A DNA stretch of 64,000 bases from a virus, in the IMG/VR virus record IMGVR_UViG_3300021519_000877, positions 10,426 to 74,425 of that record. One strand, 5' to 3'. Shown one piece after another: positions 8,789 to 37,048 of this stretch. A model generated the notes under the pieces. That model had not been told where the DNA came from. It did not search any database and saw only the letters and a list, made by a program, of their open reading frames with translations. Position numbers and translations under genes: made by a program. Within the stretch, counting starts at the first letter, position 1. Every line of letters begins with the position of its first letter.

Positions 8789-10762
8789 ATGGCATACACT
8801 ATAAGTAAATCAAACGGCGGAACACTAATACTATTAAACGATGGTTTAGCAGATAATCAGGTAACCTCGTTAACCCTTGTTGGTAAGAATGTTAGTAATT
8901 TTGGCGATGCTCAAAATGAAAACTTTGTTCACATATTAGAAAACTTTGCTTCTGCGTTTGAGCCTCGCTCACCGATGCAAGGGCAGATATGGTTTGACTC
9001 TAGTTCTAATGTATTCCGTCCAGCAGTATTCGACGGAACTAACTGGAGACCGATTGCTACTTTACTTTACAGTAATACAACTACTGATACATTAGTTAAT
9101 GCAGGATTTAATAATTTTGCAGCATCAAATCCTGGTGATTTCTGGTTTAATAGTTCTAGCAAACAACTACATGTAATTACAAGCCTTGCAAACGATATGA
9201 CCTTAATTGGTCCCGAAGCAGTGTATGGCTTTGGTGTTACAAAAATGTCATCGGTTAGTATAAAAGATATAAGCAACGTTGCACATCCTGTTATTAAAAT
9301 GATAGTAGATGGCACAGTTATTGGAGTTGTAAGCACACTTACATTTGCCACTAACGAAGTTGACCCGTATAATATCTATAAAGGTATTACTCTTTCATCT
9401 AACTCTGCTCTAGCTGCAGGCACTATTTGGGCAACTACTCTTAACGGCAATTTGGTAGCTGGTCAGATTACCGCCGACAACGCTGATATTACTGCATTAC
9501 TTGGAGTAACGGCTGCGATCGAAACCGTTAACGTTGATACACTTAATGGAACTACTGGTAATTTTACTACTGTTTCTGGAGATGTTGTTAATGGATCTAC
9601 AGTAAATGCTTCTACAGTTAATGCTACAAATTTAACAGCGTCCGGCACAGGACTTATTACAGGTACTTGGAAGTTAAACACAAACAGTTATCTTACACCA
9701 AATACTGACGGCTCAAATGATTTAGGAACTAGTTCACTTAGATTTAACAATGTTTATTCTAAAGCACTGAGCACAGGTAACTCTGCAAGTGCTGGAGATA
9801 TTATAGGATACTGGAAATTAACTTCTGGGTCATCATTTACTCCTACAACGGACTTAGGTAACGACCTTGGAGCATCAAGCAAACGATTCGGTACAGTATA
9901 TACTTCAGGAATATCAGCAAGTAATGGTGGCAATGTAATCTCAGTAACAGGTTCCCCAAATATATCAGGCAATGTTACTCCCGCAATCGATAATCTGTAT
10001 AGTTTAGGATCTGGCGCTCAAATGTGGGCAGAGGTTTTTGCAGACAACATTCAAACAAATGCAGTAGATACTACTCAAATAAATTCTGTCAATGGTACAA
10101 TTAACACTTTATCTGTAATAAATGCAACAATTACCACGTTAACTGATGCATATTCTCATACTATTAGCCAGTTTGATACAGATGGATCTCTTGCCACAAA
10201 CTCAGATGCACGACTTGCAACACAGCGAGCAATTAAGACATATGTTGATTATGTTGCTCAAGGGTTAACTAATTTAATCAATGCAATTCCAACACCCGAT
10301 ACTGATGGGACATTAGCTGCTAACTCTAATTCAAGATTAGCAACACAGCGGGCTACAAAGACTTACGTTGACAATACTCGTTCGATATTGCAAACTGAAA
10401 TAGATAACATTCCTCGTGGTGGTTTTGGAACGGACCAAACGTATGAGAATGTAACAGTTGCTAGAAACTTTGGTACCTCATATGTTAATACTACAGGCAA
10501 GACCATGTGGGTTAATGCAACAGTTTCAACAGCTGATACTGACGGTGATGACCCATTCCAGTGGACCATTGCATTTGTAAATGGTATGGAAATTACTCGA
10601 CAAGTGTGGTTAAACAATTATACAGGTGCCCCGTGCCAGATGACATTACAGTTTTTTGTTCCACCAGGAGCTTCCTACTATGTTAATATCTATACTACAG
10701 ATGAACCACCAAATCAACTATCGTTTGGCCAGTCGATATTAAACTGGATCGAATTTAGATAA
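8789..10762 (+). CDS. Tail fibre protein, paralog 3
   Basis: Same N-domain; DLG..S.RF..VY repeats; duplicated LATQRAxKTYVD; C-terminal YVNTTGK..VPPGASY fibre-tip-like domain. Confidence 0.75.
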   Translation: MAYTISKSNGGTLILLNDGLADNQVTSLTLVGKNVSNFGDAQNENFVHILENFASAFEPRSPMQGQIWFDSSSNVFRPAVFDGTNWRPIATLLYSNTTTDTLVNAGFNNFAASNPGDFWFNSSSKQLHVITSLANDMTLIGPEAVYGFGVTKMSSVSIKDISNVAHPVIKMIVDGTVIGVVSTLTFATNEVDPYNIYKGITLSSNSALAAGTIWATTLNGNLVAGQITADNADITALLGVTAAIETVNVDTLNGTTGNFTTVSGDVVNGSTVNASTVNATNLTASGTGLITGTWKLNTNSYLTPNTDGSNDLGTSSLRFNNVYSKALSTGNSASAGDIIGYWKLTSGSSFTPTTDLGNDLGASSKRFGTVYTSGISASNGGNVISVTGSPNISGNVTPAIDNLYSLGSGAQMWAEVFADNIQTNAVDTTQINSVNGTINTLSVINATITTLTDAYSHTISQFDTDGSLATNSDARLATQRAIKTYVDYVAQGLTNLINAIPTPDTDGTLAANSNSRLATQRATKTYVDNTRSILQTEIDNIPRGGFGTDQTYENVTVARNFGTSYVNTTGKTMWVNATVSTADTDGDDPFQWTIAFVNGMEITRQVWLNNYTGAPCQMTLQFFVPPGASYYVNIYTTDEPPNQLSFGQSILNWIEFR

Positions 10763-19341: not shown

Positions 19342-19502
19342 TTAATCTTTAACCAAATACGTTCATGTATATAATGTACCGCAGTTAAAATAATGTGAAT
19401 AATAACAGCGTTTCCTAATCCCGTCCACAAAGCCGTAATTAGCAATGCAATAATACGATATGTTAATGCACGAACTATGGTTCTTTTGTGGAGTTCAGTC
19501 AT
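19329..19502 (-). CDS. Small membrane protein (DUF2061-like)
   Basis: RTIVRALTYR..HERIW..I.WG pattern. Confidence 0.6.
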   Translation of the reverse strand: MTELHKRTIVRALTYRIIALLITALWTGLGNAVIIHIILTAVHYIHERIWLKIKWGR

Positions 19503-20356
19503 TAAGTTCCCCACTCGTTCTTAAACAAAGGTACTTGTAAGCGGTCACTATATCGTAAACCGTTTTTCATTGCTAACAATGCCACGGCCTTATTATTCAT
19601 AGCGTATACACTTTCAACGCCTCCGACCGGCATTAAGTAGACAGGACCTGTAAATCCAGCGGCACGATAAATGTCCACTGCTTCTAATGCTTCTTCAGCA
19701 TCTTCTTCGGTTGCAACAACAAACTTCAAATATGTATAACCCGCTTCTTCGTATTCACAAACAACTTCTGGCTTAATAGCCTCATCTGGATGCTCGCCTG
19801 AACAACTTAGTTTGGCACTAACTGAGAATGTAACTTCTCTAGCTAACTGATGATTAGTATTGCGCCATTTGATTAAAAACTCTTTAAATTCTGGAGTTAG
19901 CTTTTGAGTACCATTTGTTTCAAATGTGATCTCTTTTAACTCTTGCATCTTAGGATGATCCAACAAGTCGGGATAAGCACGTTGCCAACCTAATAACGGC
20001 TCGCCACCTGTAATAACAAGATGTGCGTCCTGCCATTTATTCTCAGGAAGAATTTCCATAGTGCGTTCTACAATGGCATCACTAGTAAGCATTGGCGACA
20101 AGTCCTTAAAACTAGGATGCCACGAAGCATAGCTGTCACAGCCTGTTGATACTAGAGGTAAGTCTTCATACTTTGTAAACATATGAGCAACTTCGGAAAT
20201 CTCTTCTGCCTCTGCACTTAGTTCACCTTTTGACATACCAAAGCCTGCACATTTAAAATTGCATCCAAATGTGCGTAAGAACACAGAAGGCACGCCCATA
20301 TAACGTCCTTCACCTTGTATACTGTAAAATAATTCTGCTATTTTAAGTTTGCTCAT
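19502..20356 (-). CDS. queE: 7-carboxy-7-deazaguanine synthase, radical SAM
   Basis: ELFYSIQGEG, VFLRTFGCNFKC..CDS, VITGGEPLL, ETNGT, RLQV. Confidence 0.85.
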   Translation of the reverse strand: MSKLKIAELFYSIQGEGRYMGVPSVFLRTFGCNFKCAGFGMSKGELSAEAEEISEVAHMFTKYEDLPLVSTGCDSYASWHPSFKDLSPMLTSDAIVERTMEILPENKWQDAHLVITGGEPLLGWQRAYPDLLDHPKMQELKEITFETNGTQKLTPEFKEFLIKWRNTNHQLAREVTFSVSAKLSCSGEHPDEAIKPEVVCEYEEAGYTYLKFVVATEEDAEEALEAVDIYRAAGFTGPVYLMPVGGVESVYAMNNKAVALLAMKNGLRYSDRLQVPLFKNEWGT

Positions 20357-21008: not shown

Positions 21009-21414
21009 TTCTATATTCCGGCGACTTATAATTGCCTTTGCCCGGGATTGTGTTGCGAACACCGCCAATTGGATCCTCAACGTCGCCCTGGCGACGAGGG
21101 ATAAGATGAACGTGAGGCCACATGACAGTTTGTCCTGCACTTTCGCCATAATTAAATCCAATATTGAAACCGTCCCATTCTCCGGCTTCCACTTTTGTTT
21201 TACCCCAATCCACAGCTTCTTCAAATGCATCTTTTAACACTCCTAACGAATTATATTTAGGCACAAATAATAAGTGCCCAGGGGTACACGGATATTTGTC
21301 GAGAAATATTGCAACATGAAAATCTTCACTGATACAATTATCCCAAGGTGCCCCGCTTTCTTCTAATGTTTCTGGACCATCAAAAATAGTATACTTGATC
21401 ATTTTGTCCACCAA
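21001..21414 (-). CDS. HIT-family nucleotide hydrolase
   Basis: DKYPCTPGHLLFVPK, AGQTV.WPHVHLIPR. Confidence 0.88.
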   Translation of the reverse strand: MVDKMIKYTIFDGPETLEESGAPWDNCISEDFHVAIFLDKYPCTPGHLLFVPKYNSLGVLKDAFEEAVDWGKTKVEAGEWDGFNIGFNYGESAGQTVMWPHVHLIPRRQGDVEDPIGGVRNTIPGKGNYKSPEYRND

Positions 21415-21941
21415 TCTTCGTATGGAAAATCAATCCACACATCATTTTCTGCTTTGTTGATTTCTACCCCGCAGTAGTCCATTTTAACTTTACATTTGCT
21501 AGCAAGATTATCTACAACTACAGCAAAGCGCACATTGTTATTCCACACATTATTCCAGCGATCATCTTTTGGTAAACAACCGCTTTGCCAATCCTCCATA
21601 ATCCAGTTTAGGGTAGCACCACTATCATTAATGTCATCTACAATAAGAATATTCTTTTTACCATCGCCAGAACACATTGGATCGTGGATGGCATATCCAA
21701 ATGCGTCATCGGCCATCCAAAGATTACTTTCTGGGCCAATAAAATCATTATGGTCTCTAAGACTAACACCTAATGTAAACATGGGCACATTAAAGTAATG
21801 ACTAATCATAACAGCAGGCAATAATCCACCGCGGGTTAGTCCTACAATATAATCAGGTTTCCAATTGCTAAGACTAATATCTCGGCATATTTTTCCCATA
21901 TTAAATTGAAACTCTTCCCACTTAATTTGCTTTTTGTTCAC
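21399..21941 (-). CDS. Type I purine phosphoribosyltransferase-like (xanthine/guanine PRT)
   Basis: IVGLTRGGLLPA, PRPP loop ILIVDDINDSGAT, WIDFPYE. Confidence 0.85.
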   Translation of the reverse strand: MNKKQIKWEEFQFNMGKICRDISLSNWKPDYIVGLTRGGLLPAVMISHYFNVPMFTLGVSLRDHNDFIGPESNLWMADDAFGYAIHDPMCSGDGKKNILIVDDINDSGATLNWIMEDWQSGCLPKDDRWNNVWNNNVRFAVVVDNLASKCKVKMDYCGVEINKAENDVWIDFPYEDWWTK

Positions 21942-22398
21942 GTCTATCCTTTAAGTATTGTTCGTTATGAATCCATTTATTATTAACTAAAAATCCCCAC
22001 TCACGCACTTTCTTCATTGGCATGAATAATGTCCAAGCAGTTACCCCAGGGTGAAGCTCAATGCGATGATAGCTGCTAGGGCGGCAGATGCGAAAATGAC
22101 CGGGGCCACGCCATTTGCGTATTTCGCACGTTTTAATGCCGTCTTTGTTGAAACCAGGGATCCACTCATAGTATCCACCTTTTAAAATTAGTGTAGCATA
22201 TGACCACGGATGATCATGAACATCATCTGGGTCACCCTTTAGAAACTTGTGTAGGAATAAATTGAAAGGAAAGTTGTCACGATCCTTTAAAAATAAGTAG
22301 TAACGTTCTAAATATGGCTCATCGCATAGTCGATCTAAAATAACACGTTTGCGGCCGAGACTGTCTAACCAATTAAGAAACTTGTTTATCAGTGTCAT
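21922..22398 (-). CDS. Cupin-fold protein
   Basis: HDHPW..ILKGGYYE and HRIEL metal-binding cupin motifs. Confidence 0.7.
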   Translation of the reverse strand: MTLINKFLNWLDSLGRKRVILDRLCDEPYLERYYLFLKDRDNFPFNLFLHKFLKGDPDDVHDHPWSYATLILKGGYYEWIPGFNKDGIKTCEIRKWRGPGHFRICRPSSYHRIELHPGVTAWTLFMPMKKVREWGFLVNNKWIHNEQYLKDRREQKAN

Positions 22399-22585: not shown

Positions 22586-22908
22586 AGCTTTAAAGTTTCC
22601 ATGGTAATAATCTTGCCAAGTGCTTTGCCGATATCTTCACCGTCGATAATAACATGTAGACTATTAATCTCACGATCTTTCTGGCGATCATAAAAGCTAG
22701 TCTCTACAATAGTACCACCGGCTGCTTTGAATACTTTGAACTGAATACCACGGTCGTTATGAAACGATACTCCTGCTGTTTGGCCAAGTGAGACTTCATA
22801 AAGTTCACTGTCCACTTCACCGCTATCGTTTAACCAATCACGTAACCATTGTTTAAAAGTTCTGCGTTTACTTCGCCGATTAATTGAGATGCCGTATTTC
22901 TGTCTCAT
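22582..22908 (-). CDS. Hypothetical protein
   Basis: 108-aa ORF coupled to folE. Confidence 0.6.
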   Translation of the reverse strand: MRQKYGISINRRSKRRTFKQWLRDWLNDSGEVDSELYEVSLGQTAGVSFHNDRGIQFKVFKAAGGTIVETSFYDRQKDREINSLHVIIDGEDIGKALGKIITMETLKL

Positions 22909-23720
22909 TTGCCTACGTAGCTCTGTTGTAGTTTAATATTGTCAAAGAACTCTTTCTTAGTATTCATGTCATCTTTAAATGCACCTGTTAATACTGTAGT
23001 TTGAGTTAAACTGCTACCTGCCATAATACCTCGATTTTCACAGCAACCGTGAATGGCTTGTATGTAAACTGCAATGTTCTTTGAACCAGTAGCATTAGAT
23101 ATCTCACGTGCTATATCATTGCAGAGCTCTTCTTGCAAAGTACCACGGCGAGCACACCACTGAGCAATTCGAGTATACTTAGACAAACCAATAAGCCTGT
23201 CGGCAGCAATAATTCCAATGTAGGCAACACCAGAAACAGGCTGATGGTGGTGACTACACATACTACGCAATTCACTCCGCACAACCAACATACCTTTGTA
23301 GCCATCATCCACCTCATTAGGAAAACTTGTTGCATCTGGCGCTTCTTCGTAGCGACCTGACATAATTTCATTAAAATACATTTTAGCAAGACGCTTTGCA
23401 GTACCTTGACTGTTAGGGTCATTCTCACGATCAATAAGCAATGTATCTAACACACTCTCAAATGCCTTAGTGGCTTCTTTGATTAAGATAGCTTTATCTT
23501 TTTCAGTGATGTATTCACTAATATTATCCCCAGCCCAAAAGCGTTTCTTATCACGCTTCATCTTAAAGCGAATAGCATCGGCTAAATTTGCTTCTTTGTA
23601 ACCTTTGTCGCTCATATTCATTGCGGCATCTTCGTATCCAGGATGATACGGTGCTTCCTTAACTAAGTCAGGATTATTATTCATTACTGCTTTTAAATCG
23701 TCTGATGTAAATGTTGTCAA
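22905..23720 (-). CDS. folE: GTP cyclohydrolase I
   Basis: SMCSHH, GLSKY.R, LQEEL, HGCCENRG; TTG start with GGAG SD. Confidence 0.93.
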   Translation of the reverse strand: MTTFTSDDLKAVMNNNPDLVKEAPYHPGYEDAAMNMSDKGYKEANLADAIRFKMKRDKKRFWAGDNISEYITEKDKAILIKEATKAFESVLDTLLIDRENDPNSQGTAKRLAKMYFNEIMSGRYEEAPDATSFPNEVDDGYKGMLVVRSELRSMCSHHHQPVSGVAYIGIIAADRLIGLSKYTRIAQWCARRGTLQEELCNDIAREISNATGSKNIAVYIQAIHGCCENRGIMAGSSLTQTTVLTGAFKDDMNTKKEFFDNIKLQQSYVGK

Positions 23721-23762: not shown

Positions 23763-24866
23763 CTATTTTATATTCTTTAGCAGATTATTACAACTAAAAA
23801 AATGTTCAGTTAAATCTAATGCTTGTTTATTTAGGCTAGGTAAAAGTTTATTGTAATTTTCCATTTGCTGAATAATCTTAGCACATAGTTCTTTACGATG
23901 TATTATATATTTTTCAAATGATTCTGTCCACTCGCTTGGATATTTAAATCCTTCATAATACATTTCTGAATATGATAAACGATCTGGAACCATCGGAATA
24001 GCATCTACAAGTGCGCCTTCATAGCAACTAATACCTAGCGTTTCTTGTAGGTTGGCTGAAAATACTAGTTTAGCTTCACCTAACAAATTGTGATATTCGT
24101 TTTTACTAAGTTGTTGATCCTGGCAAACAACAAACTCATATTGTGGCAAGTGTTCTTTTAAGTCACGGAATATTTCAACTTGTTTCTCTGGTGCAATTCG
24201 ATGTGGAAATAAAATTAAATCACGTTTGGGCATATGTTTGTATGGAGTCAACAGCCCTTCCATATATTCCATAGGCCAACCAGTTTTAACTATCTTATCT
24301 GTAAGTGTACCTGCACGAAGTTCTGCAAGATCTTCATCAAACCAAGGATTTTCAGTTACTGGTCCATTTTGTAATAGATTAGTAAAAAACATTTCAATAT
24401 GGAACTGTGTGGCAAAATAGTTGTAATCAAATGCGTGATAAAAACTCTTTTCAGCATTTCTAACCCACGGCTTATCTCCAACAAGACGTCCTAAAAAGTC
24501 TTGAGGATCGTAACTGCCAGCATGCCACAAGCCGTGTATTGTTACAGGAATCTGTAACAATTCACTCATATACTTTAAGTTGATGACACCAGGGTGCCAA
24601 GCATCAGTAAAAATAAAGTGATCGCCAGGACTAACTGATCCGGCGCAAAATAAGCGGCCAATTTTTTCAACTTGACTAGACTTATATATATTGGTGCCAC
24701 CAAAATTAAGGAAAGCGCCAGGAGTAGTGGCTTGAGGAATATCCTCAGGGCCTGAGATAATTTGAACATTGTGTCCTTTCTTTCGTAATATAGCAGGTAC
24801 ATGAGTTTTCCACTCGCCGGTATAGCGAGTGGGTACACTTTCTAAATCGACTAAAAATATAGTCAT
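23763..24866 (-). CDS. GT-B (GT4-like) glycosyltransferase
   Basis: FPHRIAPEKQ and QETLGISCYEG (E-x7-E) motifs. Confidence 0.8.
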   Translation of the reverse strand: MTIFLVDLESVPTRYTGEWKTHVPAILRKKGHNVQIISGPEDIPQATTPGAFLNFGGTNIYKSSQVEKIGRLFCAGSVSPGDHFIFTDAWHPGVINLKYMSELLQIPVTIHGLWHAGSYDPQDFLGRLVGDKPWVRNAEKSFYHAFDYNYFATQFHIEMFFTNLLQNGPVTENPWFDEDLAELRAGTLTDKIVKTGWPMEYMEGLLTPYKHMPKRDLILFPHRIAPEKQVEIFRDLKEHLPQYEFVVCQDQQLSKNEYHNLLGEAKLVFSANLQETLGISCYEGALVDAIPMVPDRLSYSEMYYEGFKYPSEWTESFEKYIIHRKELCAKIIQQMENYNKLLPSLNKQALDLTEHFFSCNNLLKNIK

Positions 24867-25087
24867 TAAGCTTCTCTACGTTCCTTAGCTTCACGACGTG
24901 CTTTGCGCTGGAGATACTCTTGAGTGCGCTGCCAATCTTTATAAGCCTTAGATCTGTATAGATCAGCTTCGTTAAAATCGATCAATTCCAAACGGCAATG
25001 ATCGTGCCATGTTTCTAGATCACTAAAGATCTTTGCTACTTCGGGCTTCATAGTTAGATACTTCGCTAACCACTTTGGCTGTGCCAT
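24866..25087 (-). CDS. Hypothetical protein
   Basis: 73-aa ORF. Confidence 0.6.
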   Translation of the reverse strand: MAQPKWLAKYLTMKPEVAKIFSDLETWHDHCRLELIDFNEADLYRSKAYKDWQRTQEYLQRKARREAKERREA

Positions 25088-25098
25088 GTTGTGTTTCC

Positions 25099-25524
25099 TT
25101 AAATTACTATTGAGTTTGTTGGGCGAGTAAGATTATAAGAAATGACGCATCCGTTCTCGCCGTCTTCGGATACATCAATTACTACAGCTCGGTTTGGATA
25201 CCTTGCCGCAATTTGGTCATACAAATCATCTGCGATCATTTCGCACGATTTGAAATCTAATTGAATAATGTCTGTGTTGTATAAACTTTCTAACCAGCGT
25301 TTAAATTGAATAAATTCAATATCGCGATCATTATGGAATACGTCAATTGCCACACGGAAGTGAAAGATATGACGATGTGCGTTTGCTAGGAAACTTACAT
25401 CATATTCACCTGCGGTACATAATGCTGGATCTGTGCCAGCGGCTGGATAACGATGGATACCTTCTTTGCGGAACGATACCCAAATTTGTCTACCTGCGGC
25501 TTGTTTAATTGTTTCAATGCTCAT
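25099..25524 (-). CDS. QueD-like T-fold protein, DpdL-type (putative CDG decarboxylase)
   Basis: LANAHRHIF (LxxxHRHxF), SCEMIA, VSEDGE. Confidence 0.65.
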   Translation of the reverse strand: MSIETIKQAAGRQIWVSFRKEGIHRYPAAGTDPALCTAGEYDVSFLANAHRHIFHFRVAIDVFHNDRDIEFIQFKRWLESLYNTDIIQLDFKSCEMIADDLYDQIAARYPNRAVVIDVSEDGENGCVISYNLTRPTNSIVI

Positions 25525-26066
25525 TTTATGATCTCGTCTTTACCATATTCGTCCCAGCTTGTAAACTGTTCACGTCCTGTTAAACTGTGTAATGTATGAC
25601 ACCAAACACCTGGATTACTTGCCTTGAAGTCTTTGTCGTCTAGTTTAATTGTAGCATTATATCCTAACTGTGTCAAGTATGGAATCTTCACAGATAGTTG
25701 AGGAATAAACTGGCGATGCTCAACTAGCCCACTTTCTAACAACCCTTCAACTTGTGCAACATCCAAATCCAAGGTGCACCAAAAATCAGAATCCAACCAT
25801 TCTTCAATCATAGTTTCCCAAGGTTTCCAGCCTTCACCATCATTAACATCTAGTTTTGGAAAACTTTGATTAGCACCAAAATAGATATGAGTAATAGGAT
25901 ATCCGCCTAGCATATAGTGTGTTTCGAGAGCCTCTGCGATGGCCTCTCGTGATTGAACCCCAACAACAAATAAGGTAAGATGACCGAACGCTGGAGTTTT
26001 TTCAATTTCCTTGCCAACGAAGAATGTTACTGCTTCGCTGGTACCGGTTTCATAATCACGCTTCAT
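25521..26066 (-). CDS. Conserved hypothetical protein in the modification cluster
   Basis: 181-aa ORF (HIYFGANQSF, KLDDKDF..SNPGVWCH) overlapping the T-fold gene start. Confidence 0.65.
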   Translation of the reverse strand: MKRDYETGTSEAVTFFVGKEIEKTPAFGHLTLFVVGVQSREAIAEALETHYMLGGYPITHIYFGANQSFPKLDVNDGEGWKPWETMIEEWLDSDFWCTLDLDVAQVEGLLESGLVEHRQFIPQLSVKIPYLTQLGYNATIKLDDKDFKASNPGVWCHTLHSLTGREQFTSWDEYGKDEIIK

Positions 26067-26198: not shown

Positions 26199-26400
26199 TT
26201 ATTTTCTTTCTAAGTTCAGTATTTTCATCTACTAACTGTTTGGTTAGTTTTTTATAGTATAATAAATCTTCTTCTTGATGTGACCGCTCTATGGTACATT
26301 TTTCTAAATCTTTAGGAATATCATTGACCCGTTTATTTAGGCCTGCGAGGTAGCCAAAAAATATTCCTACTAACAACCAAATAATATCAGTGGTCATCAA
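26185..26400 (-). CDS. Small membrane-anchored coiled-coil protein
   Basis: N-terminal TM segment followed by a charged helix. Confidence 0.55.
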   Translation of the reverse strand: MMTTDIIWLLVGIFFGYLAGLNKRVNDIPKDLEKCTIERSHQEEDLLYYKKLTKQLVDENTELRKKINEKR

Positions 26401-28055
26401 CCAACCTCACCTATAAGTTCAGTTTCTAACGCTCTTAAATCGTCATCGTCTGGGTTTTCTAAATCAACTTCTTCAGCTTTGGTTACAGTTTCTAATTCAA
26501 ACAAGTTACCAAATGTATTTTGGGCGGGGCCACCCTGTAATCGAGCACCTTCCAAACTAGTTAAGAACGCTTTGGCTTTTGGCTCTTCTAACATAGCAAG
26601 TGCTTCTGCTAAATCTTTAGTTTCGAATAGTTCTGTAACAAAACGATCAAAGTATAAAATGTTGCGTGGAACCCAATCTGAGTATTGATCACTAGTGCTG
26701 TCTTTGGCATTCAACTTGTTCCAATGACGCCAATCTGGTTTGGCTTTAGCAATTTCAATATCCATAAGTTGATTAGCACGTTGAACAGCCTTGATATGAC
26801 ATTCAACATTATGGCCCATCATTAATGCGTAGGCAAAACTATCCCAACTTGTTTTATTAGGAATCTTACCTAACTTATTAAGACGAGGTACTTCGTGATA
26901 ATGATCTGAATTTAGGTGATCAAATTTAACAGGCTCGCCCTTTTTATCTACTCCTAATTCTGCATCTGTTTTACGAGTACCAATATTATAGTAAGCAATG
27001 TCTCCCATTACTAATCTACGACCAATTTCACTTTCAAAAGGAAACGGAATATCTGAACCCGCTAGTGATTTGTTGTCTGGGGCTTTGTCCATAATAACAC
27101 TCCAACGCTTTGGCGTGTGTTGTGCATTTGTGTAGACAAGTCCGTGCGCTGTTGCAATAAACGGTGAGGCGCAATCAAAAGAGATGGTAAATTCTTCATT
27201 AATATGTTTCCTAATTTGTCGTTGAATTGAAGTCAAATAGCAAGACCAGTCTAATTGGGCAGTGCCCAAGAAGTGCATCCAGTTCTTACCTTTTAACAAA
27301 TTATCTTCACGTAGAATCATTAAGCGACGTAATGTGATATCCATCTTACACATATTGGCGCCACCCATCGCCCAACCTTCTGCTTCACGTCCGGCATACT
27401 TGCCTGCAGGATCTGAAAACTCTTTTACACCTTGATACCACTTTTCTGCGGTATCCCAATCACCACCTTGTAATACGTTAAGCCATTTAGTTTGCCCCAA
27501 ACGATTCATCAAGAAGTAATCATTATTGAAACGTGTCTTTTCTAAACAGTCATCAAATGTTTTCAATCCAGTCTTTGGACTATGAATATGATCGCAAGCC
27601 CAAGTCGGCACGTCCAACATCATTGACCAATCTGCTGTGAGCTCAAGCCACTCTAAAATACTTTGGCGTGTCTTATTAGCCGCAGGACCATCGAAGTTCA
27701 ACCAATCAAATTTAAGAACACCCTTACCGATCTGGTATCCACCAGAGTCACCTAAGATCATTGTATTGTTACGATCTCGTTGCTGGATCATCGATTCTTG
27801 TGTCACTGACTTGACTAAGTCCAACTGTGCGTGACCTGCTGAATACAAACCATACTTGTAGGTAAAGTAACCTTCTTCTGGATTTAAAAAGTTCATGCCT
27901 TCGATGCCGCGATCAAACCCCGCAGGCATACGATCATCTGCGATAAACTTTTCTAATCTCTGTTTAGCAATATATGTTGAATAGAAGCTACTAATAGCTG
28001 GCAAATAGACAGCATAGTCTTTTTGTAAAGGAGTTAAATTGACTGGTGGGTTCAT
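26397..28055 (-). CDS. TGT-fold guanine transglycosylase (DpdA-like)
   Basis: DSGGYQ, MLDVP, VLQG, AMGG, HFLG, SFD motifs in TGT order; next to folE/queE. Confidence 0.75.
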   Translation of the reverse strand: MNPPVNLTPLQKDYAVYLPAISSFYSTYIAKQRLEKFIADDRMPAGFDRGIEGMNFLNPEEGYFTYKYGLYSAGHAQLDLVKSVTQESMIQQRDRNNTMILGDSGGYQIGKGVLKFDWLNFDGPAANKTRQSILEWLELTADWSMMLDVPTWACDHIHSPKTGLKTFDDCLEKTRFNNDYFLMNRLGQTKWLNVLQGGDWDTAEKWYQGVKEFSDPAGKYAGREAEGWAMGGANMCKMDITLRRLMILREDNLLKGKNWMHFLGTAQLDWSCYLTSIQRQIRKHINEEFTISFDCASPFIATAHGLVYTNAQHTPKRWSVIMDKAPDNKSLAGSDIPFPFESEIGRRLVMGDIAYYNIGTRKTDAELGVDKKGEPVKFDHLNSDHYHEVPRLNKLGKIPNKTSWDSFAYALMMGHNVECHIKAVQRANQLMDIEIAKAKPDWRHWNKLNAKDSTSDQYSDWVPRNILYFDRFVTELFETKDLAEALAMLEEPKAKAFLTSLEGARLQGGPAQNTFGNLFELETVTKAEEVDLENPDDDDLRALETELIGEVG

Positions 28056-28850: not shown

Positions 28851-31520
28851 TTATTCAAAATCAAATAAACTACCAAAATTGTTATCTTGTGTTGTGCTAC
28901 TTAAATCCCATTCAAGAACTCCAATAAGATTATCTAACTTATTGTTAATAATAGCAGTTTCCATTTCTGAATGATTAAACGGTAAATCCTTAAACCATTG
29001 TGGCAAGCGCATTTCATCTACTGGATACGCAATACTGGTATATCCTAACGGATTATCTTTCATCTTACAAACAATAACTTTCATACCGTCTACAATCTGT
29101 TGACTATACTTGTCACCATTCATTGTTTTTAAAGTATTCCAATTAATACTTGCTCGCACATGACCAGGCATGTTTGTTTTACCAGCTTTCTTTTCTTTGG
29201 CTTGGTAGTCAGTAATATTGTTAGCACGTTTTGGACTACCTTTCTCCCAACCAGGTCTAGCCTTAAACTCAGTGCGGAATTCACTAATACGATCCAGGAT
29301 TTCAGTTTCTTGAGCACCATCTAAAACTTTATTTAGAAGTTCGCTTAAAAAGTTCTGCATAAATTCTGGAGTATCTGAACGCTTCAAGTCTAAGCCCATA
29401 GCCTTCATCTTGCCAACACCGTTATCGTCATCTTGTCTCTTGCCATCTTTGTCATAATAACGAACAGCGTACCGCTTTTTAGTAATAAACAATCCACGGT
29501 CTGCTACAAGTTCACGACCTGCTTTAATAACCTCACCGCGATTTTTTGGACAGTGAAAGTCATCTAACATGAACTGTGGGAATGTTGCATTTACTTCTTC
29601 TGCGATTTGATCGTAGAGTTGCACCACTGTATCTTTGTTCCAAGGAATAATACCTTTATTAATGTCGTTCTTTAAAATGGGCCAAGCACTAAAATACACA
29701 GAGTCGGTATCGCCGTAGATAATGCTCTTGCCAATATAATTGTATTCACCGGCTACAAACTCATTTACTTTAGCAGCCATGTGACGGGCAATTCTACGCC
29801 CAGTGAGCGTTGTTGATTGACCAATGCGCTTATCGAAGAAACGGCAACCAGGATTAAGAATAGCCCCATAGAGACTGTTAAGCAAAATCTTTTTAACCAG
29901 TTGACGCTTGTCCCAATATTCTTCTTCAATTTCATTTTCTGCCTTTATTGCATCTCTAAGTTTTGCCTGCATGTCTTTACGTTCAGCATACCAGCGTTTT
30001 AATAATCCAGGAATAATTCCTTCTTTTGCATAGGTAAAGATTGTGCCGTTAGCACTTAAGATCCAGGGTTGGTTATTTTCATAAACCATATCATAGATTT
30101 GAGCACCACTTAACACATCGGTTGACCCATCTTCCCAGTCGAGGATAATATCATTGGCCTTGTCTTTGTTCATAACAAATTCAAATTCATTTGAGCCAAA
30201 CTTGCCTTCCCATGCTGCCGCAAAACTACTACCCTTGGCCATCTTAGCTTCAATTTCTTCTTTGGTATAATCCTGACGCAACTGCCCAACAATAGTTTCT
30301 GGGCCCATGTTAAGTGCTCTAATTGCACTAGGATATAGTGAGTTAATATCCATTGAACCGATCCACTCATGCAATCCTTTCTTTGGATACGCTACATACG
30401 CACCAGCCGCTTGATTATCACCGCGGTCATCTTGTCTTGGACGACTTGGCACAATAAGACCTTTTGCGTGTGCTTCAATAATAATAGCCTGTTCTGTTAC
30501 AGCTACAGCACCCATGGTTGTTGCCAATAGAACTGTGTTTTCGTGTGCAATGGTATTGGCAAGATCAATAAACTTCAGCTTCTTATCTAGTTTATCTAAC
30601 AACGCAGTATCTTGTCTGTTGTATATGATAAAAGTTCTAAAGTCATTATTATATAATTGATCTAATGTTCCTTCGTAAACGGTTTTGGATTCTCCAACTT
30701 CCATTTCTCCAATAGCATCAAGTCTGTAAGTATGTCTTTCTTCGTATGTATACTTTCTATATAGTTCGAGTGAGTCAAGGTGAACCCTGCCCACGAGGTC
30801 ATAAGTGACCGCAGTTTTTCCGTATTTTTCATATTCTCTTTTCTTTGGAAATTGATCCCATAAGCATAATCTACGAGTATCTTCTTTTGAGAGAACTTTG
30901 ATAATACGATTAACAGTATAAGGCATATCAAAGCCCTCACTGTTCCAACCACTTAAAATATCTGCATCTTCGATTAAGTTTAGGAATGTATCTAACATTT
31001 CGTGTTCTGTTTCAAACAAGATAGTGTTAGGAATGTCTTTAATTTGCTCTTGCGCCTGCGCCATTGTTAGAGTCTTTGGCGGTACTGCTAAACATACTAG
31101 GGTATCTAACCACTGTAGGTGAACTGAAATTGCAGTAATTGGCATAAATGCGTCATCTGGTGCCGCATAGCCACGCTCTGGATCGAAGTCCACTTCGATA
31201 TCCCAAAATGCTACATTTAGTTTTGGTGCGTCGATGTTTAGATAGTTTTCTTCTAATACACGAAACACTGGATTAATGTCTGACTCAAATAGTCTGTGAC
31301 TACTGTGAATCTTTTGTTCTTTAATGTGTTCTTTCCAGCTCTTGCTAGTAACTTTGCTTAGTGCGTCCCCATACAAACTTGTGTGTTTGCCCTTTTGATC
31401 AGGATAGTAAAAAACGTATCTTGCGGGGAACTGCTGAAATATACGGCCTTTCTTTGGATCTCTTTCGACAACAGATACGATATCTGTGTCACGATCCCAT
31501 CGTGCATCTACATACGACAT
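28851..31520 (-). CDS. Family B DNA polymerase (gp43-like)
   Basis: Exo DIEVD, GWNSEGFD, YNRQD; Pol DINSLYPS, KILLNSLYG, YGDTDS, KKRY. Confidence 0.95.
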   Translation of the reverse strand: MSYVDARWDRDTDIVSVVERDPKKGRIFQQFPARYVFYYPDQKGKHTSLYGDALSKVTSKSWKEHIKEQKIHSSHRLFESDINPVFRVLEENYLNIDAPKLNVAFWDIEVDFDPERGYAAPDDAFMPITAISVHLQWLDTLVCLAVPPKTLTMAQAQEQIKDIPNTILFETEHEMLDTFLNLIEDADILSGWNSEGFDMPYTVNRIIKVLSKEDTRRLCLWDQFPKKREYEKYGKTAVTYDLVGRVHLDSLELYRKYTYEERHTYRLDAIGEMEVGESKTVYEGTLDQLYNNDFRTFIIYNRQDTALLDKLDKKLKFIDLANTIAHENTVLLATTMGAVAVTEQAIIIEAHAKGLIVPSRPRQDDRGDNQAAGAYVAYPKKGLHEWIGSMDINSLYPSAIRALNMGPETIVGQLRQDYTKEEIEAKMAKGSSFAAAWEGKFGSNEFEFVMNKDKANDIILDWEDGSTDVLSGAQIYDMVYENNQPWILSANGTIFTYAKEGIIPGLLKRWYAERKDMQAKLRDAIKAENEIEEEYWDKRQLVKKILLNSLYGAILNPGCRFFDKRIGQSTTLTGRRIARHMAAKVNEFVAGEYNYIGKSIIYGDTDSVYFSAWPILKNDINKGIIPWNKDTVVQLYDQIAEEVNATFPQFMLDDFHCPKNRGEVIKAGRELVADRGLFITKKRYAVRYYDKDGKRQDDDNGVGKMKAMGLDLKRSDTPEFMQNFLSELLNKVLDGAQETEILDRISEFRTEFKARPGWEKGSPKRANNITDYQAKEKKAGKTNMPGHVRASINWNTLKTMNGDKYSQQIVDGMKVIVCKMKDNPLGYTSIAYPVDEMRLPQWFKDLPFNHSEMETAIINNKLDNLIGVLEWDLSSTTQDNNFGSLFDFE

Positions 31521-34950: not shown

Positions 34951-35258
34951 TTCTTATCCACAGGCTTTTCGCCGGTTAGATATGGTTTACTAAACCATAA
35001 CTTTATATATTCAGCACTTCCGGGTTTAATATTATTATCTTTCATCAACTTGACTTTTTCAGCGGCTGTTGTTGAAATATTACTACCCTTATTTATTTCT
35101 GCATTATGCGCACGATATTCTTGTAATCGTGCTTCGCTACCCAATCCAGCTAGATACTGTATAACTTTTAACTCGTTTAGGGGATCGTTAGGCGCTATAT
35201 AAGCGTCTTCATCGCTGTCCTGCGGAATATTATCGGTAGTTATATAATATTGTTTCAT
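34947..35258 (-). CDS. Hypothetical protein
   Basis: 103-aa ORF; IKPGSAEYIKLWF. Confidence 0.6.
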   Translation of the reverse strand: MKQYYITTDNIPQDSDEDAYIAPNDPLNELKVIQYLAGLGSEARLQEYRAHNAEINKGSNISTTAAEKVKLMKDNNIKPGSAEYIKLWFSKPYLTGEKPVDKK

Positions 35259-37048
35259 TTCTTTTCTAAAAGTTTAATTAGGTTGGCAATACGAATTTCG
35301 TATTCCTCTCCTATTTTAACACAATTATTGACTCGTGTCTTGCCTTTCATCTTGGTTCCGGACTTTTTATATCCTTTCCGACATTTTGGATCCAGCCTTT
35401 GGTCTTCTTTGCTCATAGTTGCACCAGTGCCAATTTGATCAAAGTTTTCACCAACTAGATCACCTGCACGAGCCGGGCGTTTTGTTTTGCCCTTTAGTTG
35501 TCCTGCTGTGCCTAATTTATTTTTAGCTGCGCCAGCAAATGCGCTTGTTGGTAACATTGTTTCTACCGGCGCCATCTTCTTAACTTTTTTAACAGGAGTT
35601 AACCCAGTTTGTACCGCTAACATTAATGCTTGTGCATCTTTGTCATTTAACGTTTTTGGTAACCCTTGACGGAATGCTTCAAAATTACTTTCAATTGCGG
35701 CAGCTCGCATCTTTGTTGCACTCATTCCTGAAGCGTTGTCTGAGTCTGGATCTCGATCACCTGCTGATGCTACACTGATAGTATTGTAGTTGTATTCTTG
35801 CCCGTTGTATTGTTGTAATAGTTTATCGAAACTTGCCGCACGGTCTGATCCGGCAACCATAACAAGGTCTGAGTATTTGCTGTTAAGATGCTTTGCAGCT
35901 TCAATTGGGGTGCGGACTTGTTCATTGCATGCTACAAAGTTAGTTCCAGGAAACATTAATTTTAAATAATGCATCTTTTGTTCTATACTTAATGGATTGG
36001 CTTTATGATCCTGTGTCTTTGAAACATAGATTACATAATCTGCGTGTTGTTGAGCAGCCGCATTTTTTACAGCATTAATTAAAACTTCGTGTCCGATAGT
36101 AGGTGGATTAAAACGACCAAATGCAAATACTATCTTGCGTAGTGCGGGTTTAACTAATTCGTTAAGTAATCGACTTCTACTTTCACCAAATGTTTGTGCA
36201 ACTTTAGCACGAGCGGCTTCTTTGCCTGCCCCTTTAGCTGTGCCAACTTCTCCGCTCTTAACGCTGATCATACTGCTGAATACTCCTTGCATACGATTAT
36301 TGCTACGTGGATTTTTAATTGTTTGTTTGCTTTGTGCAAGTAGAGTATCAAAATCATTGGTCAAGTCATATTGATATAACAATGTTTGTAGGTCACTCCA
36401 CTTTTGACTATGCCAAAGTATTTCTCTATCTGTTTGTTTAAATGTGCCTGGTTCGTAAGTAACCTTACGCAACTGTAGCTCAGTGCTTGATAGGTTAAAC
36501 TCGAATTCTTGATTTGGTTGAACATTGTTTGGAACATGAACATTTAATTTTTTAAACAGTAATTTTGGATCAGTTTCGATTGCGGCAATTTTAACAAGTC
36601 CTAATACAAGACCTTGCTTCTCAGCGGGCATGTCTAGAAACTCTTGTTTAAATCCTGCTTCGATATGATCCAATGCAATGATGTTATCGATCTGTGCCGA
36701 ATACCCTAGGGCATGATCATGATAGCGAACAGTTACAATCTCACCAGAGTTATAACTACGACGGCCAGCATGCTTCTCAGAAGTAAATGCTGTGATAACA
36801 GTGTCTGGCATTTTTTCAAAGAAATGCACAAGATCTTGTTTAACTTCTTTTTTATTCTTGCTAGACTTGATATGCGTAATAAGATCGATGTCACCAAAAT
36901 CATTCTTTTCTAAATTTGAATTGTAGCTGCCAGATGGCTGTATGCTAACAAAGCCTGGAAACTTTGAAATGATATTTTTATAAGATGCTAGGAAACTTTG
37001 ATAGTCCTGGCGACTCTTTACTCGATCAGCACCTGCTACTCCGCTCAT
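35255..37048 (-). CDS. Pol-beta-superfamily nucleotidyltransferase fused to a HIGH-type (NMNAT/cytidylyltransferase-like) domain
   Basis: SGSY..GDID..QID; FGRFNPPTIGH, AGSDR, MSATKMR. Confidence 0.75.
   Translation of the reverse strand: MSGVAGADRVKSRQDYQSFLASYKNIISKFPGFVSIQPSGSYNSNLEKNDFGDIDLITHIKSSKNKKEVKQDLVHFFEKMPDTVITAFTSEKHAGRRSYNSGEIVTVRYHDHALGYSAQIDNIIALDHIEAGFKQEFLDMPAEKQGLVLGLVKIAAIETDPKLLFKKLNVHVPNNVQPNQEFEFNLSSTELQLRKVTYEPGTFKQTDREILWHSQKWSDLQTLLYQYDLTNDFDTLLAQSKQTIKNPRSNNRMQGVFSSMISVKSGEVGTAKGAGKEAARAKVAQTFGESRSRLLNELVKPALRKIVFAFGRFNPPTIGHEVLINAVKNAAAQQHADYVIYVSKTQDHKANPLSIEQKMHYLKLMFPGTNFVACNEQVRTPIEAAKHLNSKYSDLVMVAGSDRAASFDKLLQQYNGQEYNYNTISVASAGDRDPDSDNASGMSATKMRAAAIESNFEAFRQGLPKTLNDKDAQALMLAVQTGLTPVKKVKKMAPVETMLPTSAFAGAAKNKLGTAGQLKGKTKRPARAGDLVGENFDQIGTGATMSKEDQRLDPKCRKGYKKSGTKMKGKTRVNNCVKIGEEYEIRIANLIKLLEKK

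Follow-up and report, generated by a model that had tools for sequence, protein, structure and literature searches.

What does a glycosyltransferase act on when its gene sits inside a set of phage deazaguanine genes? Hydroxymethyl-pyrimidines are bases known to carry sugars, and 7-deazaguanines have been described bare or with small substituents. The question is raised by a stretch of 64,000 nucleotides (positions 10,426 to 74,425 of the IMG/VR virus record IMGVR_UViG_3300021519_000877, called the window hereafter), in which the gene of a 367-amino-acid (aa) glycosyltransferase (GT; P0001, 23763-24866, minus strand) shares one minus-strand block with the genes of GTP cyclohydrolase I (FolE), a DpdL-type T-fold protein, a DpdA-like transglycosylase and QueE, which bears out the original prediction that the GT belongs to a deazaguanine gene set. 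The explanation we prefer, held with middling confidence, is that the GT is an active, retaining, GT4-like enzyme dependent on a nucleoside diphosphate (NDP) sugar, and that it serves as a dedicated part of the module by putting a sugar on the DpdL product. The whole record comprises 74,425 bases and is about 20% complete according to CheckV, and absences in it mean little. Very likely it is a fragment of a jumbo phage, many relatives being found on contigs of 200-375 kb.

The co-occurrence check suggested with the original prediction, GT against T-fold and DpdA-like genes, was run, and the GT was not found to occur independently of them. For a diverse set, 80 IMG/VR loci were collected through a GT sub-alignment (36-51% identity to the first sequence of the sub-alignment, which is about 31% identical to P0001). 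It turned out that 78 of the 80 loci contain DpdL, always on the same strand and in 75 cases within 3 kb, and in the two loci lacking it the GT stands at the contig edge. Dereplicated GT clusters have DpdL in 63 of 66 cases at 70% identity and in 23 of 25 at 50%, and DpdL is an uncommon gene, present in 29 of 50,697 phage records. By tblastn the GT was found in 22 records of isolated phages. It lies among folE, queE and dpdL in Phosso, PAC2 (one of 11 PA5oct-like records), ACP17, X1 and BCSR5, and BUDD also carries DpdL. One genome each of 185,579 prokaryote species yielded 5 GT matches in a single pattern-based scan, which may miss more divergent cellular copies; all five are on viral-looking contigs of metagenome-assembled genomes with DpdL immediately upstream, and four also have a DpdA of the 552-aa type found in the window. 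The linkage of GT and DpdL spans very different gene orders and phage backbones, and the membership of the GT in the deazaguanine module is strongly supported.

The exception is a distant GT branch of about 25% identity (PhiXhv-12, Ep026, Ep032), which is accompanied by GlmS and a BshB-like deacetylase. In the Xanthomonas phage PhiXhv-12 (locus L005:6819-10053) the GT relative directly follows GlmS and the BshB-like GlcNAc deacetylase, and this phage is not among the DpdL matches. The arrangement looks BshA/BshB-style and hints at UDP-GlcNAc as the donor in that branch, maybe for another DNA or glycan modification.

The transglycosylase follows the GT as well: of 226 loci whose GT is full-length, 202 contain a DpdA-type gene. 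The GT gene adjoins or overlaps a DpdA gene with the DSGG motif in PAC2, ACP17, X1 and BCSR5, and the two are translationally coupled in PAC2 and ACP17, whereas in Phosso the DpdA gene lies elsewhere in the genome, away from the GT. On a FastTree phylogeny built from 122 dereplicated GTs, 10 changes of DpdA type were counted, where shuffling gave 38 on average, which shows co-inheritance of the GT and the DpdA type and is no proof of co-evolution. As assigned here, the GT of ACP17 stands between dpdL and dpdA. In an earlier study, dpdL and dpdA of ACP17 alone produced no 2'-deoxy-7-deazaguanosine (dDG) in E. coli, a result that its authors tentatively put down to enzymes not included; the main text makes no mention of a glycosyltransferase (PMC10516641). 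In our reading, the position of the GT explains this lack of product.

DpdL loci were then taken as the anchor, with 80 further IMG/VR loci, 41 of which have at least 4 kb on both sides of DpdL. The GT occurs in 52 of the 80; among the well-flanked loci, 29 of 41 have it and 12 do not (26 versus 12 clusters after dereplication). Besides, profile searches backed by a positive control found no GT in five complete genomes that encode DpdL, those of the Cellulophaga phage phiST, RHph_I1_18, Ahp1, the Vibrio phage Bakedbeans and D479. The DNA of phiST contains plain dDG in place of all dG (PMC10516641), and the idea that making dDG requires the GT was rejected, since phiST makes it without one. Thus DpdL does not need the GT, while the GT seems to need DpdL, and the GT therefore looks like an add-on acting after DpdL.

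The accompanying genes set the two kinds of loci apart as well. Of the 12 loci without the GT, 9 have the short DpdA3 of the phiST type (about 283 aa), versus none of the 29 with it, and the same counts (9 of 12 versus 0 of 29) apply to a dCTP-deaminase/dUTPase-like protein (PF22769), whereas long DpdA types are confined to the DpdL-anchored loci with the GT. This suggests two mechanistic classes of DpdL loci, one with the GT and a long DpdA and the other with the short DpdA3 and nucleotide-pool enzymes. As a side observation, DpdL clusters fall into two nearly exclusive kinds (in the loci L176-L255, for example L182:7765-8607 and L182:9080-9586), and in the isolates phiST and D479 the kind without the GT has an additional dNMP-kinase-like gene. 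This accessory set looks like nucleotide-pool enzymes, and such phages may build the base into dNTPs and not exchange it after replication.

One large clade with the GT has the gene order QueE, FolE, DpdL, radical S-adenosylmethionine (SAM) protein, GT and a protein of 300-415 aa. For this downstream protein, the ESM Atlas points to DpdA (feature score 0.94, TM 0.85 by the matched row), hhalign of the family against DpdA is weak (E 1.3e-3), and phmmer and blastp with known DpdA seeds gave no match among the neighbours of the diverse clade. The radical SAM protein is about 450 aa long, or about 295 aa with a SPASM domain, and its gene accompanies the 300-415-aa DpdA type ('down1') in 58 of 77 loci and the 552-aa type in 2 of 40. 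It was seen between dpdL and the GT in L097:8573-9934, L103:6779-8143, L107:673-1560 and about 58 more loci, and it may make a handle or remodel the sugar. In the 74-kb record of the window, QueE is the only radical SAM protein.

Which molecule of the pathway is the acceptor can be narrowed by the genes present and absent. Of the enzymes that would supply 7-carboxy-7-deazaguanine (CDG), FolE and QueE are in the cluster, with no QueD among the scanned open reading frames (ORFs) near it in a record covering about 20% of the genome. In PA5oct, the 6-pyruvoyl tetrahydropterin synthase (gp230) is encoded apart from QueE (gp162), and PA5oct DNA resists several restriction enzymes, from which, together with these two genes, its authors inferred a modified G (PMC12191111). 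QueC was found above the cut-off in none of five complete genomes with the GT, which leaves CDG and DpdL as the end of the pathway. The GT goes with DpdL and not with CDG synthesis in general, and the DpdL product, taken as 7-deazaguanine, is therefore the most likely acceptor. The CDG carboxylate, one of the acceptors first proposed, was marked down for this reason, for it would not explain the strict dependence of the GT on DpdL.

The remark that no hydroxymethylase is visible held up: neither the 74-kb record nor the complete GT-bearing genomes of ACP17, X1 and BCSR5 contain PF00303, the family of ThyA-type hydroxymethylases. Phosso and PAC2 encode ThyA homologues, with the scores of ordinary thymidylate synthases (418 and 258 bits). 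Given three complete genomes with the GT and no ThyA-type gene, hydroxymethylcytosine (hmC) or hydroxymethyluracil (hmU) was rejected as the general acceptor.

The protein itself also speaks for a working enzyme. In single-sequence searches, P0001 matched no GT family in Pfam (neither PF00534 nor PF13439 at the gathering threshold) and nothing in PHROGs, NCBIfam or the PDB sequences. An exhaustive search of 50%-identity representatives returned 1,096 relatives at E <=1e-3, and 56 full-length relatives (28-54% identity to P0001) were aligned as A1. PF00534 is matched weakly by 45 of the 56 (E up to 0.1; best 1.3e-8), and the family profile aligns with solved GT4 enzymes in the EX7E segment (e.g. 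the GT 8xsg). Throughout A1, Q65, D88, E139, P198, E283 and E301 are invariant and R223, K228 and E275 nearly so, the E-x7-E motif running from E275 to E283. The AlphaFold2 (AF2) model of P0001 (pLDDT 94, pTM 0.91) has two Rossmann-like domains in GT-B topology and matches solved GT4 enzymes over its full length. VIA-align (VIA) with residues 1-367 gave Z 26.2 to 6kih, 25.2 to 6n1x and 3mbo and 24.4 to 3c4q (by enzyme, sucrose-phosphate synthase 26.2, BshA 25.2, MshA 24.4 and GlgM 24.3), and Foldseek gave GT4 enzymes with probability 1.00 (E 3.6e-11 and weaker). The T4 alpha- and beta-glucosyltransferases (AGT, BGT) are not among the best 50 Foldseek or 50 VIA entries, where a lower-ranked match is possible.

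With the modelled fold, the GT4 matches and the conserved E275 and E283, the original call of a retaining-type GT-B enzyme with E-x7-E stands, and P0001 is confirmed as a GT4-like GT-B glycosyltransferase. It is filed as a divergent branch and not as a member of a curated family because no Pfam threshold is reached. Its N-terminal motif (E9, R14, Y15, W19) differs from the usual Gly-rich loop of GT4 enzymes. Conservation is strong in the N-terminal domain on the acceptor side, where several aromatic and acidic residues are invariant; this fits one defined ligand common to the GT family. Separately, two paralogous GT copies were observed within one 20-kb locus in L091 (394 and 364 aa) and L151 (322 and 332 aa); such pairs would fit a di-saccharide or two different sugars.

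The proposed route has four steps. FolE, QueD (not in this fragment) and QueE would make CDG, as their homology suggests, and DpdL, according to a published proposal, would putatively convert CDG to 7-deazaguanine. The long DpdA-like transglycosylase, to judge from its fold and catalytic motifs, would swap guanine in phage DNA for 7-deazaguanine. The GT would then put a sugar, probably from UDP-GlcNAc or a UDP-hexose, on the DpdL product, either as the free base before insertion or as the base in DNA, with the pyrrole C7/C8, N2 or O6 as candidate acceptor atoms. The product would be a glycosylated 7-deazaguanine, whose bulk could work against nucleases and whose sugar could make an otherwise reversible base exchange irreversible. 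The acidic GT family and the small-molecule folds would point to the free base, while the tight link to dpdA and the place of the module among replication genes would point to the base in DNA. Tentatively, and with more doubt than the general explanation, we suggest that the GT joins the sugar straight to 7-deazaguanine within phage DNA, maybe forming a C-glycoside at the nucleophilic pyrrole carbon which DpdL unmasks.

Several points weigh against these proposals. The GT family is acidic (median pI 5.7), and among solved structures it comes closest in fold to GT4 enzymes with small-molecule substrates and not to the T4 DNA glucosyltransferases. On 7-deazaguanine there is no ordinary hydroxyl to accept a sugar, and the ACP17 cluster has no obvious handle-making enzyme. 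A C-glycoside at C7 or C8 of the electron-rich pyrrole ring is chemically conceivable, but no retaining GT4 enzyme is known to us to form C-glycosides; on N2, a sugar would be placed in the minor groove of duplex DNA and might hinder polymerases. Besides, the decarboxylase activity of DpdL is itself a putative, published proposal that is unproven, and the phages with the GT are known from their genes, the restriction resistance of PA5oct being the only, and indirect, DNA data.

Among the other explanations, the one that survives best is that the GT adds its sugar to a small pathway molecule which never enters DNA (a pterin intermediate, CDG or the released guanine), thereby sequestering or tuning a metabolite; we consider it unlikely. 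The nearest folds (BshA, MshA, sucrose-phosphate synthase) and the pteridine glucosyltransferase 9v0l (VIA Z 21.2) act in its favour, as do the acidity of the family and the unusually conserved acceptor-side domain, which fits a small defined ligand. FolE and the T-fold enzymes are also pterin enzymes, and the tetrahydrobiopterin glucosides of cyanobacteria provide an analogue of pterin glycosylation. However, it is DpdL and DpdA that the GT follows, and not FolE or QueD in general; FolE and QueE are also present in DpdL loci that lack the GT. The translational coupling with dpdA in PAC2 and ACP17 is hard to explain by a side product, which would moreover bring no evident benefit to the phage.

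It is improbable that the GT serves an unrelated acceptor, such as hmC or hmU DNA, a phage or host protein or an envelope glycan, and came to its position by a syntenic accident in a replication block. The distant branch with GlmS and the BshB-like deacetylase, outside the DpdL matches, indicates that the fold can serve other acceptors, and Phosso and PAC2 do encode ThyA homologues. Nevertheless, an accident would hardly give the linkage with DpdL in 63 of 66 dereplicated clusters over varied gene orders and backbones; ThyA-type genes are absent in ACP17, X1 and BCSR5, and those of Phosso and PAC2 score as thymidylate synthases.

Slightly less probable again is an action on tRNA, in which the DpdA-like enzyme would install a deazaguanine and the GT would glycosylate it, by analogy with the glycosylated queuosine of animals. 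In vertebrates, queuosine is mannosylated by QTMAN/GTDC1, an enzyme of the GT4 family, and the fold of the 552-aa protein matches tRNA-guanine transglycosylases (TGTs). Yet the module stands between polB, the clamp gene and a 5'-3' exonuclease, the homologous DpdL system of phiST replaces all G in DNA, and in the GT-bearing PA5oct it is the DNA that resists several restriction enzymes, read by its authors as modified G (PMC12191111). Least probable of all, the GT would be a non-catalytic or scaffolding partner of the long DpdA, for example holding the DNA or the base with no sugar transfer, for which its strict pairing with long DpdA (short DpdA3 in 0 of 29 loci with the GT versus 9 of 12 without) and the gene overlap with dpdA in two isolates could be taken to speak, but the retention of R223, K228, E275, E283 and E301, invariant or nearly so down to 28% identity, argues for retained catalysis, and no GT of at least 644 aa, as a fusion with DpdA might be, was found (weak evidence).

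Setting a sugar on the DpdL product thus remains the explanation we prefer, and the rest of the locus can be described on that basis. All ORFs of 23763-26066 are as first described, every one on the minus strand. In the sense of transcription, the order is polB, a 245-aa clamp-like protein, the 552-aa DpdA-like protein, a 71-aa ORF, the 181-aa protein, the 141-aa DpdL, the 73-aa ORF, the GT, FolE, a 108-aa ORF, a cupin, a phosphoribosyltransferase (PRTase), a 225-aa ORF and QueE. The GT had been described as wedged between folE and the DpdL-like gene; the latter lies inside the interval and not at its border, and the gene beyond the interval is the TGT/DpdA-like one. In a megablast of 10 kb of the window against phage records, no match was found.

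The 141-aa protein (P0003; 25099-25524, minus strand) is a DpdL-type T-fold protein and QueD paralogue (phrog_17812, E 1.6e-33), 34% identical to its phiST homologue. In the family alignment (A6), its LANAHRHIF corresponds to LxxxHRHxF in place of CxxxHGH, the signature that defines DpdL as a proposed CDG decarboxylase (Hutinet, Cui et al. 2023, PMC10516641). In Bakedbeans, the DpdL match falls in the C-terminal part of the annotated 383-aa gp176 (L174:5212-6363), suggesting a fusion of DpdL with an upstream domain, possibly a short DpdA3.

The 552-aa protein (26397-28055, minus strand) has the TGT motifs LGDSGGYQ and FDCASP, and its single sequence matches neither PF01702 nor PF23859. For the core of its AF2 model (about residues 90-300, pLDDT mostly 70-94), all 50 top Foldseek matches are TGTs (E about 2e-6), and on this modelled fold it is a DpdA-like homologue of DNA/tRNA-guanine transglycosylases, only remotely similar to the DpdA3 of phiST (hhalign E 1e-4, probability 57%). 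In many of the loci L010-L089, the GT is 76-89% identical to that of the window and the DpdA-like protein only about 35-42% identical to the 552-aa protein; the transglycosylase either evolves much faster or has been swapped between lineages.

Two small proteins had been counted in the core. The 73-aa ORF (24866-25087, minus strand), whose TAA stop overlaps the GT start as TAATG, is, judging by this overlap, translationally coupled to the GT. It is kept in 78 of 80 close-clade loci and nowhere else, with no family match in Pfam, PHROGs or NCBIfam. The 181-aa protein (P0004; 25521-26066, minus strand) is indeed present, as a lineage-restricted accessory and not as part of a universal core: its family occurs in 10 of the 29 well-flanked DpdL-anchored loci with the GT versus 0 of the 12 without. 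Its profile matches a 132-aa gene upstream of dpdA in ACP17 (E 1e-37), and no assignment was obtained from Pfam, PHROG, NCBIfam or the Atlas.

On the other side of the GT, FolE (22905-23720, minus strand) is assigned by PF01227 (E 1.8e-39) and phrog_2197, and the QueE-like radical SAM protein, or CDG synthase (19502-20356, minus strand), by PF04055 and by NCBIfam QueE matches of E 7e-14 to 1e-9, all below the cut-off. Between them lie a 158-aa cupin-like protein (21922-22398, minus strand; phrog_4786, E 6.7e-35; motif HDHPW...YH) and a 180-aa purine-type PRTase (21399-21941, minus strand; PF00156, E 1.2e-13, with weak XPRT/HGPRT matches in NCBIfam). The cupin is a clade-specific accessory, found in 67 of 80 close loci versus 0 of 80 diverse loci, and the PRTase is found in DpdL loci with the GT as well as without it. 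Both are inside the cluster, likewise in PA5oct-like phages. The PRTase recalls the CDG phosphoribosyltransferase step of tubercidin clusters, and could make a deazaguanine nucleotide or salvage the released guanine.

The module in the window stands between the genes of the family-B DNA polymerase (28851-31520, minus strand) and the clamp-like protein (minus strand; phrog_12062, 40% identity to a PAC2 gene annotated as PCNA) and that of a 5'-3' exonuclease. About 9 kb from the GT, at 35255-37048, a 597-aa protein with a cytidylyltransferase-like (HIGH-type nucleotidyltransferase) domain was also noticed (PF01467, E 1e-5), which could activate a sugar or belong to NAD salvage.

Whether restriction, CRISPR or glycosylase defences succeed against a phage depends on its DNA hypermodifications, which are also a source of biotechnological tools. 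With a glycosylated deazaguanine, two known kinds of modification, phage DNA glycosylation and deazaguanine replacement, would be combined into a new nucleic-acid chemistry; in DNA such a base would be new, and no paper on it was found in a full-text search of the literature. If direct glycosylation in DNA is true, no sugar-bearing purine analogue would have been known from a natural genome before. The modification would also be common, as the GT accompanies about 70% of the DpdL clusters in environmental viral contigs and forms more than 1,000 clusters at 50% identity. The prediction is directly testable in cultured phages with the GT, namely ACP17, PA5oct and its relatives, X1, BUDD, BCSR5 and Phosso.

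Among known systems, phiST is like the locus described here in having FolE, QueE, the LxxxHRHxF QueD paralogue (DpdL) and a TGT-family transglycosylase next to a DNA polymerase, with no QueC. It differs in that phiST has no GT, a short DpdA3 of 259 aa and a kinase-like ATPase and MazG as neighbours, whereas here a long DpdA of 552 aa is present and the GT travels with it. T4 alpha- and beta-glucosyltransferases are also phage enzymes of GT-B fold, which use a UDP-sugar on a replaced base after replication, but they need the hydroxymethyl handle provided by a ThyA-like dCMP hydroxymethylase. BshA and MshA, the UDP-GlcNAc-dependent retaining GT4 enzymes of bacillithiol and mycothiol synthesis, resemble the GT in structure (Z 24-25, rmsd about 2.6-3.4 A over about 300 aligned residues, with EX7E in common), but they share only 10-14% identity with it, use L-malate and inositol phosphate as acceptors and are encoded in an entirely different genomic context. 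HuiG of Kutzneria albida (KALB_4073), going by its published description, comes close in another way: it is a GT4-type enzyme (PF13439, in the same Pfam clan as the GT family) encoded beside FolE, QueD and QueE homologues, and it transfers GlcNAc onto the 2-amino group of a 7-deazaguanine-derived base in the synthesis of huimycin (PMC7439116; bioRxiv 10.64898/2026.04.15.718813). Unlike the GT, HuiG acts on the free O-methylated preQ0 base in a bacterial antibiotic pathway which has QueC and has neither DpdL, DpdA nor a DNA product. The original statement that every possible acceptor would mean new chemistry was thus too strong for N2, for which HuiG sets a precedent on the free base, so that a sugar at this position would be new only for DNA.

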